Shown one piece after another: positions 28,301 through 34,300 of a stretch of 64,000 nt of DNA. The position numbers are program-made. Within the stretch, counting starts at the first letter, position 1. Each line of letters opens with the position of its first letter. The DNA lies in contig OZ245843.1 of the NCBI GenBank assembly GCA_965228875.1, forward strand, positions 4,417,971-4,481,970. The letters are read 5' to 3'. Source of the DNA: Thalassobaculaceae bacterium (GTDB taxonomy: Bacteria > Pseudomonadota > Alphaproteobacteria > Thalassobaculales > Thalassobaculaceae).

Positions 28301-31300
28301 ACGATGTGCAGACCAACCTCATGTATCCGCTGTCGGCGGACCCCGAAGGGCCCAGTCTGGTGTTCGCTGTCTGGAGCGCGGAACCGATCCTCGACGGCTT
28401 CGCGCCGGTGTCGCAGCAGCGGACCGACGAGTTCCTTGCGGCGCTCCGCGCGGCTGTGGATGCGTCCAATGCGTCGGACGACGCCGCCAGGCTCTATGCC
28501 CGCACGGTGACGATCACCGTGGCCCGGTAGACGGCGCGGGTACGGGGCTAGGCAGGGGGAGGAGAAGCACGGGATGGATGCTGGCGTGTTTTCGGCCGAC
28601 GCGGTGCTTCATGCCGCGCTGTATGGCACGTTCATCGTCATGATCGTTGCGATCGCCGCCAACGACTGCGCCGGCGCGGTCGCGCTGGTCTGCGTCGACG
28701 GCACGGTCGACATGCGCGCAGCGCAGGTCCTGATCGCGGTGTTCCTGGTTGTGGGCGCCGTGTTCGTCGCGCCACCCGTCCTCGATCGCCTGATTCTGCC
28801 GCTGATCGCCCTGGAGGACTTCCGCGCCGCACCCTTTGCCGGACCGACGGTCCTGTTCAGCGCCGTCGTGCCGCTGGCGCTGGCGACGGTGTTCGGCGTC
28901 CCGGTCTCCGCATCGGCTCTGGTGGTCCTGGCCGTCCTCGGGGTCATCGTCGAGCGCGGAGGAGGCGTCGATGCCGCCGCGGCTGGCCGGCTGGCGTTCG
29001 CACTGCTGCTGCTGCCCGCCATAGCCTGCGGGGTCGGTCGAGGGTTGGCGTGGGCGTTTCGGGACCGAGCCGTTTCGGGCTCCCGGCCGCGCGATGCGCT
29101 GACCTGGGCTCTCCCGGGACTGGCGGCGTTGCTCGCCGCAGCGACCGTCGTCGTCGTCGCGCTGCTGACGGATCTGCACGGGCCCGTCGCGCAGGTCTCG
29201 GCGATCGTCGCGGGCATCGCTGTCATCGCGGCCTTCGCGGTCGGCGGCGTGTATCTGCTGCGCATTCGCCGGTCGCCGTTCTGGGTGTCCAACGACCGTC
29301 AAGGGTTCGAGGCGGCGCATGGATCGCTGTCGCTGGCGTGCGGCGCCCTCGGCGGCCTGTTGCTCAGCGGTGTCAATGTCGGCATGGCGATTGCGCTTTT
29401 GTCGGTCCTGCTGAACGGGGGAGGCGCCGGCGTGAGCTTCGCCAGCCCGCCGCTCTGGCTCGGCCTCGGGCTGGCGTTCCTGACCGTTCTGCTGGCCGGC
29501 CATCATCTGGCGGGACGACTGGAGCGTGCCGGACTGACGCCGGAGCCGTCGCAGGCCGCGATCGGGACCATAGGCGCGTTCGTCGGCGCCGCGCTGGCGG
29601 CCGTCGTGCACGCCCCACTGCCCCCCAGCCTGACACTGGCATCCGGACAGTGCGGAGCGGCGGGTGACCTCCGCACAACGGCGCGGTGGCTCGGCATCGG
29701 ACTCCTGGTCGGCCTGCTGTCCTTCGCCCTTTCCTTTGCCGTGGATCTGGCGCTCCGCCTTCTGGCGGAGTGACGCCGAAGGGAGCTCGTTGCCATGCTG
29801 TCCGCCGCGCTCAGTCAAGTCCATCCGACCGTCGGTTTCGCCGTCCTGTTGTGTCTGGCCGCCGTGGCCGTGTGCGTGACCGCCATGCCGGTGCTCCGTG
29901 GGGCGGCGGCGGGCGTCGATCCCATGACGCTACGACGCGCGGCGCGCGCCGCGCGGGCGCCGCACCGGCCGCTGCTGTCTCTGTTCAACACGGGCCGGCG
30001 CCGGATCGTCGCCCTGGCCGGCATCGGGACGCTTGTTGCCGTGTTCGGGTTCGGCAGCCTCGGTCTGGTGGCGTTCGACAGCAGGATACGGGGTCAGAAT
30101 TCGGCGATCGCCGAGCGTCACCGCCTGGAGGGCGAGATCGAGGCGGCGCGGGCGCAGACGAAGGAGGCGGAACGTCGTGCCAGCGAGGCGCTGGCGGCAA
30201 GGGACGAGGCGCATCGCGAGGAGATGCTGGACCAGGAGGCGCGCTACCAGAAGCGGATCGAGGAGCTCAAGGCGGAACACCAGGCGGAGGTGAACAGCCT
30301 GACCCTGAAGTTCCAGGAGGACCTGGCGCGCCAGGGGGAGACCGACGAGTTGAAGAACTCGGTCAGCAGCATGCAGATGCAGCTTCTGGAGCAGACCAAC
30401 AGGACGCTGACCATCGAACTCGACCGGGCGAAGGAGATCATCCTGGATCAGGCGGCCCGGATCCGGGCGCTCGAGGAGAAGCTGGCGGAAGGCAACTGAC
30501 GGACCCGTTCATGGCAGGAACACGGCGGATGGAACGCCCATGATCATCGCCAACAGTCAGGTGACGGCCATGCGGTCGGTCGGGTGGACGGCGTGGCGGC
30601 AGCGGCATGCCGACGCCCTCGAGTCCCTGCTGCCCGAAATCGCGGCCAGTGAGGGCGACGGTTGGATCGACCTGGTCGATACGGTTCTGCGCCACGCCGA
30701 CATGGCCGGATTGACCGGGTTCGAGGAGGTGCGCGCCTTCGGCTATGCGTCCCTCACCCTCGGCATCGGGTTCGAGGGCCGGGAGGATCTGCCGGGCCTT
30801 GACCGCGCGATGGAGAAGACTGGATCGGCGCGGGCTGCGGCGCTGTGGCAGGTCTGCGCCGACGCCAGCCACGATCCGGAGGCAGTATGAGGGTCGCGAC
30901 ACGGCCGATGAACCCGCAGGCGGTGGCCGCCGCGAACGCCGCGACGGATGCCCGGTTCCCGAGCCGGCCGCGGCCGGGCGACCCGGAGTACGGGGCTTTC
31001 CGCAAGACCTGGATGGACTCCTATGTCGAGGCGGGCGGCGGCGTCGAGACGACAACGCCCGAGGAGGCGGTCCGCGCCGCCGAGGCGGACGCGGCTGAAG
31101 ACACCGCCGCGGATGGCGCCAGCCGTGATGTGATCGAGCAATGCGCCGAGACGTCCGGTCCGCCTCCGCCCCCGCCGCCGGCGGATACATCGGGGTGCTC
31201 GTGTCAGATCGCGTCCCTGGGTGTGGTGTGCGAGCATGGCCGGTCCGCCCGGGATGGCCTGCTCATGGTTGTAGCCGACAATGCGTTCGGCGACGAGGTG

Positions 31301-34300
31301 ACGGTCACGCCCGCGACGTCGGGTGCCTGCGAGGGGAAGATCACCGTCCGGGCGTCGGGCAAGCGGGAGTTTCCGGTGAAGGACACCGCAGCGCACAGCT
31401 TCAAGACCTCGGGGCGGGGAACCCTGTACCGGGGCCTGTTCGACCTGCACAGAATCCCTCCGGTCAGCACGACGGTCTCGGCCGAGGCGTGCGGGCGTCA
31501 GGCCGAGGCGGTGAAGGTCGAGGCTTATCCATCGAGCAAGCTGACCGGAAAGCTCGATCTTCAGAAGCTGGTCGAAGACTACAAGGGCATCGCCGCCTAT
31601 CTGCCGATCCGGGCCTCGGGAGAGAAGAAACCGATCAAGCCGCTCGACGCACCGAAGAAGAAGAATTGGGAGTTGGATACCGGAACCTCGATCAGCATCG
31701 AGGTTCAGTGGAAGGAGGATTCTGACAGCCATCGGGCGTACTGCGGCCATACCCTTGCCGGTGCGATGGATCCCGTGTTCGGCGTGGCGGCGTCGTATCC
31801 GATCTTCGGGATCCCGGTTCCGCCGCGCGTGGACCGCTACATCAAGGCCGGGCTGTACCTGAATATCGGCCTGGGCACCTCGATCAGCGCCGGCTGCGAG
31901 TGGGCCTATTGGCCCGACACGCGCGAGACCGAGTGGCACGCGGTGCGGATCGAATTGAAGGGGAGCGGCTCGCTCGAGATCGCCGCCGAACTGATCGCCC
32001 TCAGCGAGGATGTCGCTCAGGCGAAGATCGCGGGCAAGGCGACGATCAGCGTTCAGGGAACCGGTCAGAAGGGGTCCGGTAATGCGCCGGAACTGAAGGG
32101 CCAGGCGACCCTCGAGCCTCTGACCGCCACCGTGATCGGCAAGATGGCCTGGGGGTTGGTCGAGACCGAGCGATCCTGGACGGTGACGGAGGCCATGAAC
32201 TTCCCGGAGAAGGAGTTCGTCTGGAAGCTCGACAAGGAGCTGAACTAGGATGGCCATCGACACGGCGCTTCGTTTCGCTCCGGCGACACCGGGGCTGCGG
32301 GTGTTCCTGAACGGGTTCCTGCTGGTGAACGACCGCGATGGCGAGGCGTCGACGACACGCGTCGGAGCCTTTCTCGCTCCGGGTACCAACGTCGTCGTGC
32401 TGGATGCCGGGGATGATCTGCAGGCGGCGGGCCGGGTCGTCGTCACCCCTGGAGACGATGCGTTCGCGACGCCACTGGTCGATATCTCGCTGCCCGACCC
32501 CGATGCGCCGGGCACGGTGGCACAGGATCGTTTCGACCCGCCGGCCGGGACGCCGGCCTGGCGCTGGACCCGGGCGGAAGCGGTGGAGGGCGATGTGGTC
32601 GACGACCTGCACCGGTTCCTGTCGACGGTCGCCGAGGCCTTTGCCGCGCCCGATGTTGGGCGGCTGCTCGCCCTGTTGGCGACGAAACACGAGGAACTCG
32701 GCCAGAGCTTCGGCGTCGGGCGTGCGCGGATGGACACGGGCCTCTCCCAGGGGCTGGCGACGCGTCGCGAGCAGGGTGGCTTGGCGGTCGACCTGGCGTC
32801 GCCGGAGGATCTCGATCTTGTCTGGTCGCCCGACCGGACCCACGTCCGACCGCTCAGGGGGGACGGGAGCGACGCGCTCCATCTCCTGGTCGGCGGTGCA
32901 CCCCAGCCGTTCGAGCTGCATGTCGGCAGGCTCGATGGATCCTGGGCGGTTCTTCGGTAGCCCCGTGGCGCGCGCGAGACCCCGAATGATGCAGCAGGCC
33001 GGCTTCGCCCTCATCCTGTTCGGCGTCGCCCTGAGCGCCGCCGGCGCCCTGGTGTTCTGGCAGTCGCTGTCCCAGACCCGGTTCCACCCGATCGCGGCGA
33101 CCGTCCTCGAGAGCGGTATCGGCCTGACCGGATCCCGCTACTCCGGATCGTCGAAGGCCTCGCGCTACTGGGAACTGCAGGTCCGCTACAGCTACGAGGT
33201 GGCGGGCCGGCGTTACGAGAGCACCTTCGTCTCCAGCAAACCGATCCGTGCCGTCGCCGACGACGGGGCGAAACCCACCGCGGAACTGGAGGCGATCGCC
33301 GCGTCGTTTCCGGTCGGCGCGACGGTTCGGGCCTGGGTCGCTCCCGACGATCCGGAGCGCGTCGTCCTGTTCCCGGCCGAGGATGCGGAATGGATGCTGC
33401 TGGCGATCGGGATCGCGGTCCTCGCGGTCGGGATCGGCGTACGCGTCCACTCCTCATCGTGAGCGGCGATGCCGGCGCGGCATCAGTTGCGTTGCATATC
33501 GGCAACATCTCCTGAAAATAGTATCGGCCTTCCGGATGATTCCCGTCATGTGGAGGGCGCGCGAGGTTGCTCGCCCGTGGCGCGTGGAGGTACCTTGGTT
33601 AAAATCCTTTAACTCTGCGTGGGGGCGTTATGAGAAAGCCACTGAAGGGCATGGTTGGCGCGCTGACGGCTGCGCTGATGGCCAGCGTCTCGACGCAGGC
33701 GATGTCGGGGGATGTGCTGATCGTCAATGGATCGTCGGCAACGAGTGAAACGTTCACGACGTCGCAGATCACCAATAACTTGACGACGAAGCTGGAGGCG
33801 CGCGGCAACACCGTTACGGTGACGGACGGCATTGAAGGCGCGTTGAGCGGATACTCTCAAGTCTGGGATCTCAGGTTCTCCAACGCGTCACTCGCCGCCG
33901 CCGATCAGACATCGCTGGTCGAGTACATCCAGGGAGGCGGCAACCTCTTTGTCATGGGCGAGAATGATAATTTCCCGCTCCGCAACACCTCCGTGCTGTC
34001 GCTGATCGAACAAGCCGGTGGTGGGACGATCACGTTGGACTCGACTGTCGACAGTTCCACTCAGACACTCATCAACAGCATGGGTACGGTTACCTACTCG
34101 GCGCCGAACTTCGCGACCTCTTCGGGGACAGGTTCGTTTCTGAGTTTCGACGGCGCAGGCAACGGCTCGGCTATTTCCTGGGAAACGGGAACGTTGACCA
34201 ATGCGTCCCAAGGTGCGCTCGCGACCGTATTCGACGTCAACTTCATGGACGATACCGCGCTCGACGGTGAAGAGGCGCTGTTCAACCTGATCCTCGATCT

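Follow-up and report, generated by a model that had tools for sequence, protein, structure and literature searches.

A four-gene cassette of a Thalassobaculaceae bacterium that very probably encodes a type VI secretion toxin along with a loading helper and two likely protection proteins

The four adjoining genes g04084-g04087 lie within an atypical type VI secretion system (T6SS) cluster of a Thalassobaculaceae bacterium, in the window, that is, the whole stretch of 64,000 nucleotides analysed here. They are very probably a toxin fired by the T6SS, a helper that loads it and two likely protection genes.

The four-gene cassette and its occurrence

The genes are as follows.

30540-30890, plus strand: g04084, 116 aa; small helper, read as a co-adaptor: the effector-binding lobe of a split DUF4123/Tap adaptor, encoded by a gene of its own
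30887-32248, plus strand: g04085, 453 aa; putative effector, its ATG overlapping the g04084 stop
32250-32960, plus strand: g04086, 236 aa; candidate immunity protein or toxin-specific chaperone, beginning 2 nt past the g04085 stop
32986-33462, plus strand: g04087, 158 aa; DUF3592 protein with two TM segments, membrane immunity candidate

All four hold up as genuine ORFs at these coordinates, and their GC3 (0.81-0.85) is as in the adjoining genes. The NCBIfam scan of all four gave nothing and the Pfam scan gave nothing for g04084-g04086; the sole Pfam family of the cassette is DUF3592 on g04087 (E 2.9e-12), in accordance with the first-pass annotation. No signal peptide or TM segment was found in g04084, g04085 or g04086. 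The phmmer search of g04085 against 1.84 billion representatives returned the same counts as reported earlier, namely 103, 59 and 24 proteins at E<=1e-3, 1e-10 and 1e-30. This toxin family has no name so far. Gene structure, family relations, domain fusions and gene order are direct observations.

The order of the four genes is kept in all three metagenome loci with a full-length relative (L005, L006 and L007), of which L005 and L006 are near-identical, giving two distinct loci. It had been claimed that VgrG and DUF4123 genes stand directly upstream in half of the related loci. This arrangement was seen in none of the three cassette loci, and neither gene was found in their available flanking DNA. 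A ClpV-like ATPase gene and a Tae4 effector gene lie directly upstream of the cassette in L007, and 10 kb of unrelated polysaccharide-export genes lie upstream in L006. The cassette is rare in reference genomes: none of 62 other genomes of the order carries it, nor does any of 400 genomes of the class.

Cargo features, proposed loading and protection

The domain content of all 103 relatives of g04085 was analysed with Pfam. The scan revealed PAAR at the N-terminus of three proteins (P0035, P0062 and P0068), Tox-PAAR-like on one (P0052) and a complete VgrG on one (P0078, 1109 aa). In all five fusions the part matching residues ~85-450 of g04085 sits C-terminal to the partner domain, with E-values of 1.7e-21 to 1.7e-6 in the phmmer search against 1.84e9 proteins, and the source name of the PAAR fusions is 'Zn-binding protein involved in type VI secretion'. 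Fusion of its toxin-domain relatives to PAAR and VgrG gives g04085 the mark of cargo.

The remaining N-terminal part of g04085 is a separate module.

30887-31111, plus strand: g04085 residues 1-75; modular N-terminal loading module of three helices

The helices cover residues 10-23, 35-48 and 58-74 (pLDDT 94-98). Residues 1-60 are found again, at 43-55% identity, on proteins whose C-termini are unrelated, namely P0079, P0089, P0091, P0093, P0098 and the proteins of loci L002-L004 and L008-L013. These C-termini include HExxH metallopeptidase-like domains (P0098 and the 510-aa protein of L002, Reprolysin E 3e-4), and other carriers contain CarboxypepD_reg.

Directly upstream of the N-module protein, a g04084-like ORF of 110-147 aa was found in 12 of 12 fetched loci (10 distinct), comprising the three cassette loci and nine N-module-only loci (L002-L004, L008-L013). 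An HMM built from the nine non-cassette helpers was run on 342 ORFs and matched g04084 at E 2.4e-4, while none of the window's remaining ORFs fell below E 6, and hhalign compared g04084 with these helpers at a probability of 97.7% (E 1.3e-12). The metagenome protein P0106 (293 aa), a single protein seen on one contig, has DUF4123 at residues 26-140 fused to a g04084-like domain; g04084 is therefore read as a Tap adaptor's effector-binding lobe that has been split off, and by analogy with TecT/co-TecT we infer the same division of labour. The remaining presumed partners are encoded elsewhere in the window.

11901-12491, minus strand: short DUF4123 protein, 196 aa; N-lobe-only Tap adaptor, presumed docking partner of g04084
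12488-15010, minus strand: VgrG, 840 aa, with Phage_GPD, Phage_base_V and Gp5_trimer_C; presumed carrier

DUF4123 occupies residues 40-156 of the short protein (Pfam E 1.1e-29), which is the only DUF4123 protein in the genome; likewise the helper and the N-module each occur there exactly once. No effector gene follows the DUF4123 gene; the next gene, 45 nt away, is convergent and of the OmpA family. Similar sizes are found for DUF4123 ORFs in the N-module loci (180 aa in L009, 198 aa in L013 and 190 aa in L010, the last assigned by tblastn match), and this range of 180-198 aa matches the conserved N-lobe of DUF4123 adaptors, given as 177 aligned residues in the excerpt of PMC11582642. In L002, L010, L012 and L013 a DUF4123 gene immediately precedes the helper, with a VgrG gene further upstream in L002, L012 and L013, and in L009 a VgrG-DUF4123 pair lies 6 kb upstream. 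Gp5_trimer_C of the window's VgrG ends at residue 732 and is followed by a tail of ~108 residues; conservation extends to residue 833 in the VgrG of L009 (48% identity) and in that of L002 (34%), each followed by a short DUF4123 protein. The earlier proposal that the locus encodes a T6SS cargo effector together with helper and protection genes is thus supported by stronger evidence, namely the PAAR, PAAR-like and VgrG fusions and a modular N-terminus coupled to a g04084-like helper and a short DUF4123 protein. Counting against it, the VgrG and DUF4123 genes of the window lie ~18 kb from the cassette on the opposite strand, and the surrounding T6SS cluster, atypical in its fused TssB-TssC, its TssM reduced to the N-terminal part and its lack of ClpV, may not fire.

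Relatives of g04086 and g04087 are present in all three toxin-domain loci and in none of the nine N-module-only loci. They accompany only the toxin part and are therefore candidates for immunity or chaperone functions. The g04086 family comprises 7 clusters of 236-243 aa with no Pfam family, and no hydrophobic segment was found in g04086. Its nearest Atlas clusters score 0.95 and one of them is auto-named DUF4440 (NTF2-like), a kinship taken as a lead only. The g04087 protein has hydrophobic segments at residues 4-28 and 133-157; a similar gene is present in all three cassette loci, with two copies in L007.

On balance, we consider it likely that g04085 is a T6SS cargo effector and that the four genes form one effector module, with split-adaptor loading, an envelope-acting toxic part and protection by g04086 and g04087. 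We infer its binding steps, toxicity, target and immunity as follows. The N-terminal 75-residue helical module of g04085 would be held by g04084, which would dock on the short N-lobe-only DUF4123 protein, and this in turn would bind the C-terminal tail of VgrG. The toxic part (residues ~105-453) would most likely act on the envelope of the target cell, at a membrane or on its lipids, rather than as an enzyme of a known class. The producer would be protected by cytosolic g04086, by the two-TM protein g04087 or by both; alternatively, g04086 may keep the amphipathic domain soluble before firing.

It is highly improbable that the four genes are instead accessory or structural T6SS parts, such as stand-ins for the missing TssJ and TssM C-terminus: the cassette does end a one-strand gene string after TssK, truncated TssM, DotU and two membrane proteins, in a cluster with fused TssB-TssC and only the N-terminal part of TssM, where no ClpV, TssJ or TssM C-terminal part was found, but it is mobile alone (L005/L006 and L007 carry it without such an apparatus), the PHO4-like and coiled-coil neighbours do not accompany it, relatives carry the toxin domain fused to PAAR or VgrG, the N-module and helper also serve unrelated C-terminal domains, and a signal peptide for an outer-membrane location is lacking.

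The presumed toxic part and the question of a barrel

The part behind the loading module comprises two domains.

31202-31534, plus strand: g04085 residues 106-216; Cys-rich Ig/PKD-like beta-sandwich
31535-32245, plus strand: g04085 residues 217-453; ten-strand up-and-down antiparallel sheet, presumed toxic part

The sandwich carries the family motif C-x8-C-x-H-G-R and two more conserved Cys; C106, C115, H117, G118, R119 and C148 are invariant in the family alignment and C202 is nearly so. Residues 103-217 match PKD, Ig and FnIII domains (VIA Z 5.8-6.5, rmsd 2.4-3.2). The strands of the C-terminal sheet are up to 25 residues long and strictly amphipathic, and W275 and E277 are nearly invariant across 99 sequences. 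The AF2 model of this domain alone has a pLDDT of 88.1 and a pTM of 0.75, and the full-length model a pLDDT of 87.3. No activity could be assigned by a Pfam, NCBIfam, PDB-sequence or significant fold match.

Foldseek against the PDB again gave no match at E<=1e-3 for the full-length and domain models. The first-pass annotation held that this region matches only outer-membrane barrels, and this did not hold. In the VIA search of 48,161 chains, the full-length model ranked three small soluble barrels first (DUF3224 with Z 8.9, a katydid pigment protein with Z 8.7 and 2q03 with Z 8.2), and six of its ten best matches were outer-membrane barrels. The model of the C-terminal domain had eight such barrels among its ten best matches (Z 8.0-8.9, rmsd 5-7 A). 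The Z values form a flat list, and Z 8-9 is what the tool typically gives as its best score when a model has no true match. Where the rmsd is low, the best alignments cover wall segments of large barrels and point to no specific porin.

Membrane attack by g04085 is plausible. The proposal that it inserts a beta-barrel pore comes down to a generic resemblance, with Z 8-9 at the noise ceiling and soluble lipid-binding barrels scoring equally. According to this proposal, a porin-like barrel would insert into the target membrane, alone or as an oligomer, and form an unregulated pore, while g04086 would shield the domain in the producer and the DUF3592 protein would block it in the membrane; we regard this proposal as unlikely. 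It draws on the domain-only matches to CymA (Z 8.9), EspP (8.4), NalP (8.3) and Hbp (8.1), with 130-183 residues aligned to barrel walls, and on strands that all alternate, with a hydrophobic face that is 1-3% charged over 19-25 residues (13% in strand 347-371) and aromatic residues gathered at the strand ends. A two-TM protein in every cassette, duplicated once, would suit it, as would the weak, non-significant Foldseek rows with pore forms of MAC, pleurotolysin, leukocidin and hemolysin (E 0.02-0.4). However, DUF3224 (Z 8.1-8.9, rmsd 3.4-3.5) and the Ups1/PRELID lipid carriers (Z 7-7.9) tie at lower rmsd, and a second VIA comparison gave no beta-pore-forming toxin at Z 5.3 or above. The hydrophobic face carries conserved Gly/Ala (G359 80/94, G383 81/95), is more conserved than the polar face, like a buried core, and spans the full 19-25 residues, more than a bilayer requires. 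An aromatic C-terminal end is typical of outer-membrane proteins, but g04085 ends in …KLDKELN and has no signal peptide. Judged by sequence, a soluble sheet with a hydrophobic core would account for the strand pattern as well as a membrane barrel would.

The C-terminal domain might instead be a soluble cup or barrel for a lipid or hydrophobic ligand, killing by sequestering or extracting an envelope lipid or lipoprotein, or serving as a non-toxic secreted scavenger. In accordance with this, small soluble barrels head the full-model matches together with a pigment-binding protein of the vitellogenin type (Z 8.2-8.9; two of them at rmsd 3.4), and lipid carriers match too (PRELID1 Z 7.0-7.4, Ups1 7.9, SLMO1 and Aster). 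Both Foldseek searches put microsomal triglyceride transfer protein in first place (E 7e-3 to 1e-2, probability 0.66-0.80), and a conserved hydrophobic face with small residues suits a lined cavity. These scores nevertheless fall within the same noise band, and the presence of two conserved downstream genes specific to the toxin domain speaks for a toxin and against a harmless scavenger; this explanation, too, is regarded as unlikely.

Comparison with known systems

The preferred reading, an envelope-acting cargo effector loaded by a split adaptor, was compared with known systems. Long antiparallel amphipathic up-and-down strands are shared with outer-membrane barrels (CymA, the autotransporter beta-domains of NalP, EspP, Hbp and AIDA-I, and the walls of TonB-dependent receptors; VIA Z 7.2-8.9 over 130-187 residues). 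Unlike these, g04085 lacks a signal peptide, the identity is 1-11%, the rmsd is mostly 4-7 A and the scores are at noise level; the alignments are to wall segments of 12- to 22-strand barrels and indicate no particular barrel family.

As in specialised ('evolved') PAAR and VgrG effectors, the same ~350-residue domain stands behind PAAR, Tox-PAAR-like or VgrG in the five relatives, whereas g04085 is the cargo form, in which the loading module replaces the spike domain.

Excerpts of PMC11582642 and bioRxiv 10.64898/2026.08.24.746647 describe Tap6-Ptx2 and Tap14-RhsP2 (P. aeruginosa PA14) and VasW-VasX (Vibrio cholerae) as one-piece DUF4123 adaptors loading VgrG cargo, the N-lobe binding the C-terminal tail of VgrG and the C-lobe the effector. 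The order vgrG, DUF4123, effector and immunity follows the same logic in these systems, but Tap6, Tap14 and VasW are single proteins, unlike the split form here. A membrane target would be shared with Ptx2, VasX and TpeX, but in the same excerpts these three are colicin-like alpha-helical pore formers with a MIX motif, whereas g04085 lacks both a helical membrane domain and a Pfam family.

In arrangement the cassette is likened to TecT/co-TecT of the effector TseT (Pseudomonas aeruginosa), a split DUF4123 adaptor in which co-TecT binds the effector, according to an excerpt of PMC11582642 citing Burkinshaw 2018. In that system, as proposed here, contact with the spike is made by a DUF4123 protein trimmed to the conserved lobe, the effector is bound by another small protein, and this cargo effector lacks a signal peptide. 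On the cassette side the likeness consists of the DUF4123 size of 180-198 aa, the helper that always adjoins the effector and the one fused DUF4123-helper protein; g04084 is likened to co-TecT by arrangement and not by sequence comparison. As far as that excerpt goes, TecT docks on a PAAR extension, while VgrG is the neighbour of DUF4123 here, and TseT is a DNase, while g04085 is beta-rich. Unlike TecT/co-TecT as described there, the helper here would recognise a portable 75-residue N-terminal module common to many toxins.

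The cassette and the gene cluster around it

The cassette consists of four ORFs, namely the small helper g04084, the effector candidate g04085 and two downstream genes, and it forms the end of a one-strand string of genes carrying the T6SS cluster. The positions of the cassette genes and of the VgrG and DUF4123 genes are as follows.

30540-30890, plus strand: g04084, ORF of 116 aa
30887-32248, plus strand: g04085, ORF of 453 aa
32250-32960, plus strand: g04086, ORF of 236 aa
32986-33462, plus strand: g04087, ORF of 158 aa
12488-15010, minus strand (opposite to the cassette): VgrG, at the start of the T6SS cluster of the window
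11901-12491, minus strand (opposite to the cassette): DUF4123 protein of 196 aa, with Pfam DUF4123 at residues 40-156

The first two frames overlap in an ATGA, while gaps of 1 nt and 25 nt separate g04085 from g04086 and g04086 from g04087. Third-position GC of the four genes (0.81-0.85) is similar to that of the genes around. The sole Pfam family on the cassette was DUF3592 (PF12158) on g04087 (E 2.9e-12, 47.5 bits against a cut-off of 25.3); the NCBIfam scan of the four genes gave no family, and no promoter or terminator was found in the scan of window 29500-34000. The four-gene cassette described in the first-pass annotation is real, and its ORFs, Pfam result and family counts are in agreement with the present data.

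The string begins with caspase-like and hydrolase-like genes, and continues with a fused TssB-TssC, Hcp, TssE, TssF, TssG and TssK. After these come a 345-aa partial TssM, a long DotU and two membrane proteins, one PHO4-like and one coiled-coil, and then the cassette. In the cluster proper (18260-28530) the TssB-TssC fusion has 643 aa and DotU 469 aa, ClpV is absent, and the TssM-like protein matches TssM positions 68-363 only, which is the N-terminal part. Between VgrG and the sheath gene (14679-18138) there are an 845-aa protein with a C-terminal caspase domain (Peptidase_C14, E 1.9e-10) and a 315-aa protein with a weak alpha/beta-hydrolase match, and both may be further cargo or accessory genes of the cluster. 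Between DotU and the cassette (28574-30499) there are the PHO4-like protein with about 10 TM segments (E 2e-10, under the Pfam cut-off) and the coiled-coil protein of 234 aa, N-terminally anchored; neither gene is kept with the cassette in L005-L007, the loci with full-length g04085 relatives. Downstream of the DUF4123 gene no gene runs in the same direction, and a convergent OmpA-family gene ends 45 nt off; it belongs to the string ExbB - ExbD - ExbD - 609-aa unnamed protein - OmpA family (7604-11856), which abuts this end of the cluster. Directly 3' of the cassette (33630-35258) a 542-aa autotransporter (beta-domain E 1.3e-23) was found with no sequence kinship to g04085; confusion may arise here, as a true outer-membrane barrel adjoins the barrel-like domain of g04085.

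The genome has three T6SS-like loci. The canonical one, at C1:1919062-1949990 in the numbering of contig C1 (about 1.92-1.95 Mb), has both ClpV (1184 bits) and a TssM of full length (1028 bits). The third (C1:4528823-4541366) lies about 47-60 kb past the window end; its TssC match falls in an 823-aa open frame, which may again be a fusion, and a frame of 1361 aa matches TssM in part.

The g04085 family and its spike fusions

The phmmer search of 1.84 billion representatives revealed 103 relatives of g04085 at E<=1e-3, 59 at 1e-10 and 24 at 1e-30, reproducing exactly the earlier counts from the same search. The protein Atlas returned unnamed clusters with a top score of 0.84, and the PDB sequences compared with the family profile gave nothing under E 0.8. 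The family was found in none of the 62 other genomes of the order and none of the 400 sampled genomes of the class. Scanning one genome per species with a pattern in the N-module (g04085 residues 1-75, the proposed loading module) gave matches to the first 60 residues alone, with three N-module loci and no full-length relative, and the viral contigs gave no match. The DotU of the window was present in none of 10 other genomes of the genus. The near-absence of the family from reference genomes, taken with the DotU result, indicates that the whole island is specific to this genome among the genomes examined. As the 99-sequence alignment of g04085 held no conserved stretch, related loci were sought with the 12 closest sequences (alignment A2).

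The Pfam scan covered all 103 relatives, and in six of them a named N-terminal domain precedes the region matching g04085 residues ~85-450. The fused domain is PAAR in P0035, P0062 and P0068, Tox-PAAR-like in P0052, a complete VgrG (Phage_GPD, OB and gp5-C domains) in the 1109-aa P0078, and Peptidase_M15_3 in P0054, so that five of the 103 carry a spike component (PAAR, PAAR-like or VgrG). T6SS toxin domains are classically recognised by such fusion to spike proteins. The source annotation of the PAAR-fused relatives reads 'Zn-binding protein involved in type VI secretion'. The neighbourhood points the same way for the window, where the cassette ends a T6SS cluster, and for L007, where ClpV-like and Tae4 genes lie directly upstream of the cassette; the counter-example is L005/L006, with no T6SS gene within 10 kb. 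The hydropathy scan of g04085 revealed no hydrophobic segment and hence no sign of a Sec/Tat signal peptide, and its N-terminus is a folded helical module conserved family-wide. An ordinary outer-membrane protein or an autotransporter fragment was considered and rejected, given the absent signal peptide and the fusion of the domain to spike proteins. The assignment of g04085 as a T6SS cargo effector is well supported and very probably correct. If confirmed, it adds an effector family that is new and counts about 100 sequence clusters, nearly all metagenomic; for its toxic part no relative is detectable in Pfam, NCBIfam or the PDB.

The N-module, its helper and a probable split adaptor

Six of the 103 relatives (P0079, P0089, P0090, P0091, P0093 and P0098) match g04085 over the N-module only, from residues 1-60 to 1-90 with 43-55% identity, and run on into other domains. 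Two of the six have an HExxH-type metallopeptidase motif, and P0090 retains a degenerate copy of the family Cys motif. Genome and metagenome scans with patterns inside the N-module gave 12 loci (L002-L013), of which L005 and L006 are nearly the same, as are L008 and L009. At all 12 loci the N-module protein is preceded by an ORF of 110-147 aa that reaches or runs into its start, and these small ORFs are alignable with g04084 (alignment A3).

A helper profile was built from nine small ORFs not beside a g04085-type toxin. Among 342 ORFs it recovered g04084 at E 2.4e-4 and its two cassette homologues at 1e-13 and 3.5e-5, while no other ORF of the window came under E 6. The hhalign comparison of the cassette and non-cassette helper groups gave a probability of 97.7% (E 1.3e-12). 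This kinship across the N-module loci indicates that the helper goes with the N-module and not with a particular toxin, as would be expected if it were a loading factor rather than an immunity protein. Pfam at E<=1 on five helper ORFs gave chance-level rows only, and PDB sequences gave nothing under E 0.05 with the helper alignment profile. Three proteins (P0104, P0105 and P0107; 259-270 aa) are tandem double helpers. The stretch L002:12819-15597 carries a second helper paralogue of 147 aa and, after it, a gene for a 780-aa protein that lacks an N-module match but has weak peptidoglycan-binding and papain-like (C39/C70) matches; the helper family may serve more than one type of N-terminus.

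The gene orders in the related loci were read by tblastn with the window proteins.

Gene orders at N-module loci
L002: TssF … VgrG - DUF4123 - helper - N-module metallopeptidase
L012 and L013: VgrG … DUF4123 - helper - N-module protein
L010: DUF4123 - helper - N-module protein
L009: a VgrG - DUF4123 pair lies upstream, some 6 kb away
L003 and L004: only the helper and the effector gene

In L013 (1986-3948) a gene like those of zinc phospholipases C and one for a 269-aa protein containing PAAR precede DUF4123 - helper - N-module protein, which suggests a VgrG island with several effectors.

All DUF4123 ORFs measured are of small size, with 180 aa in L009, 198 aa in L013, 190 aa in L010 (match by tblastn) and 196 aa in the window. 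Colautti et al. (2024; PMC11582642) show that DUF4123 adaptors are two-lobed. Their N-terminal lobe is conserved (177 aligned residues) and attaches to a helix-turn-helix at the C-terminus of VgrG, while the effector is bound by the C-terminal lobe, which is helical and variable. The Discussion of that paper states that the lobes may be separate genes, as in TecT/co-TecT, where co-TecT binds the effector. The window DUF4123 protein is comparable by length to the N-lobe of ~177 residues reported there (PMC11582642). A helper-profile search of longer proteins revealed one fused sequence, P0106 (293 aa), in which a helper domain comes after DUF4123 (residues 26-140); its DUF7767 row (E 0.004) is under the Pfam cut-off. 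Taken together, the two-lobe adaptor, the TecT/co-TecT split and the P0106 fusion allow g04084 to be read as the split-off effector-binding lobe. The genome holds one DUF4123, one helper and one N-module, beside three VgrGs and one PAAR elsewhere, and these single copies fit one loading chain despite the genes lying 18 kb apart. The window VgrG extends ~108 residues past the gp5 C-domain, and its conservation with the L009 and L002 VgrGs reaches residue 833.

Judged from sequence, g04084 would be the effector-binding lobe, acting with the short DUF4123 protein and VgrG to load g04085 through its N-module. This split-adaptor loading chain is considered likely. If confirmed, it provides more natural cases, including one fused form, of the two-lobe split Tap adaptor that TecT/co-TecT led others to propose. 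Unrelated toxins would then be tagged by a portable module of 75 residues together with its cognate helper of ~120 residues. MIX, FIX and prePAAR are markers that have served in effector searches, and the N-module and helper, if confirmed, could be used like these and DUF4123 to search for new effectors.

Downstream genes, predicted structure and mode of action

Genes like g04086 and g04087 were present in order in all three toxin-domain loci (L005, L006 and L007, the last having the DUF3592 gene in two copies) and in none of the nine N-module-only loci, which indicates that they are specific to the toxin part. The g04086 family has seven clusters of 236-243 aa; g04086 has no hydrophobic segment, and Pfam at E<=1 on eight members gave chance-level rows only. 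Its nearest Atlas clusters score 0.95, one being auto-named DUF4440 (NTF2-like), which is a lead only. In g04087, TM segments 4-28 and 133-157 flank the DUF3592 domain. In the available text of one paper, DUF3592 adjoins LXG toxins of the type VII system with its function there called 'unclear', and no T6SS paper was apparent among the accessible parts of papers mentioning the domain. By position g04086 is the first immunity candidate; if immunity is cytosolic, the toxin would more likely act from the cytoplasmic side. In another reading g04086 could be a chaperone and the DUF3592 protein a membrane immunity protein.

The AlphaFold2 model of g04085 from 99 sequences had a mean pLDDT of 87.3 (pTM 0.67) against 77.8 in the first pass. 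From the N-terminus on, it shows the N-module as three helices (residues 1-75, pLDDT 94-98), a linker that is Pro-rich and disordered, the beta-sandwich at 106-216, one helix, a further disordered segment (the loop 242-260) and a C-terminal up-and-down sheet with strands 266-277, 284-308, 319-342, 347-371 and 377-395 and three shorter ones. The domain-only model (216-453) gave pLDDT 88.1 and pTM 0.75. The sandwich resembles PKD/Ig/FnIII domains (Z 5.8-6.5) and carries the invariant motif C106-x8-C115-x-H-G-R, plus C148 and C202; the conserved C106, C115, H117, C148 and C202 could be a zinc site or disulfides.

The C-terminal domain gave nothing at E<=1e-3 in Foldseek, where the top row in both searches was microsomal triglyceride transfer protein (E 7e-3 to 1e-2). 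Fold comparison was made with VIA-align against 48,161 chains, where the tool gives a best Z of 7-8 as typical of models without a true match. The full model was closest to DUF3224 (Z 8.9, rmsd 3.4, 96 residues), a katydid pigment protein (8.7) and 2q03 (8.2), then AIDA-I (7.7), CymA (7.6), KdgM (7.6), NalP (7.2), TamA (7.2) and PRELID1 (7.0). The domain alone matched CymA (8.9, rmsd 6.5, 166 residues), EspP (8.4), NalP (8.3), Hbp (8.1) and DUF3224 (8.1, rmsd 3.5), then many TonB-receptor walls (7.4-8.0); the best barrel, CymA at Z 8.9, stands in a flat score list. A second look at the Foldseek list gave TonB-receptor wall segments at Z 7.2-8.1 (157-183 residues, rmsd 3.7-5.5) and Ups1 at 7.9, with no beta-pore-forming toxin at Z 5.3 or above; the folds of such toxins (hemolysin/leukocidin, aerolysin, MACPF) gave Foldseek rows of E 0.02-0.4 with probability <=0.13. 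As the best Z is near the level reached without a true match, the likeness is that of a generic long-stranded curved antiparallel sheet, which is equally common to membrane barrel walls and soluble lipid-binding barrels.

Every strand alternates strictly in the 99-sequence alignment. Charged residues make up 1-3% of the hydrophobic face along its full 19-25 residues (13% in strand 347-371), and small residues are conserved there (G359 in 80/94, G383 in 81/95, A321 in 64/94); the opposite face is variable with 29-36% charged residues on the long strands, and aromatic residues gather near the strand ends. Such a pattern fits equally a water-filled membrane barrel and a soluble sheet that has one face buried or lined with lipid. 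Two points slightly favour the soluble reading, in which g04085 acts as a lipid-binding barrel, itself rated as improbable: the hydrophobic face is the more strongly conserved one, and it is longer than a bilayer is thick. The porin or pore former, as one of two or more competing readings, is given an equally small chance, and a protein of the porin and outer-membrane barrel class is expected to have an N-terminal signal peptide, whereas the hydropathy scan and the folded helical N-terminus of g04085 revealed none. The probability remaining beyond these two readings goes to some other activity. Of the earlier proposal of a T6SS effector inserting a porin-like barrel, the effector part holds through the spike fusions and the helper/DUF4123 coupling, and the flat Z list leaves the pore part not established. 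The fuller scheme is likewise doubtful: g04085 would represent a first class of beta-sheet, porin-like membrane-inserting T6SS toxins, a signal-less barrel-wall protein kept soluble by g04086, loaded by the 75-residue module and the split Tap adaptor, forming a beta-barrel channel in the membrane of the rival and blocked by the two-TM DUF3592 protein. A beta-type membrane toxin, if true, would be a new mode of action for T6SS pore formers; that part is a proposal.

The T6SS pore formers VasX, Ptx2 and TpeX are colicin-like and alpha-helical, as given in the available text of bioRxiv 10.64898/2026.08.24.746647, in contrast to the predicted beta-type C-terminal sheet of g04085. No beta-barrel T6SS toxin was reported in the accessible parts of the literature on T6SS pore-forming effectors covered by a non-exhaustive search, and a 2023 review mentions beta-barrels, in its available portion, solely for Rhs cages (PMC10433429). 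The available text of a paper on conserved domains of vgrG loci lists six domain families including DUF2345 and LysM, the N-module not being among them (PMC10673891). The loading logic of g04085 is that of DUF4123-dependent cargo, as in Tap6-Ptx2, Tap14-RhsP2 and, above all, the split TecT/co-TecT.
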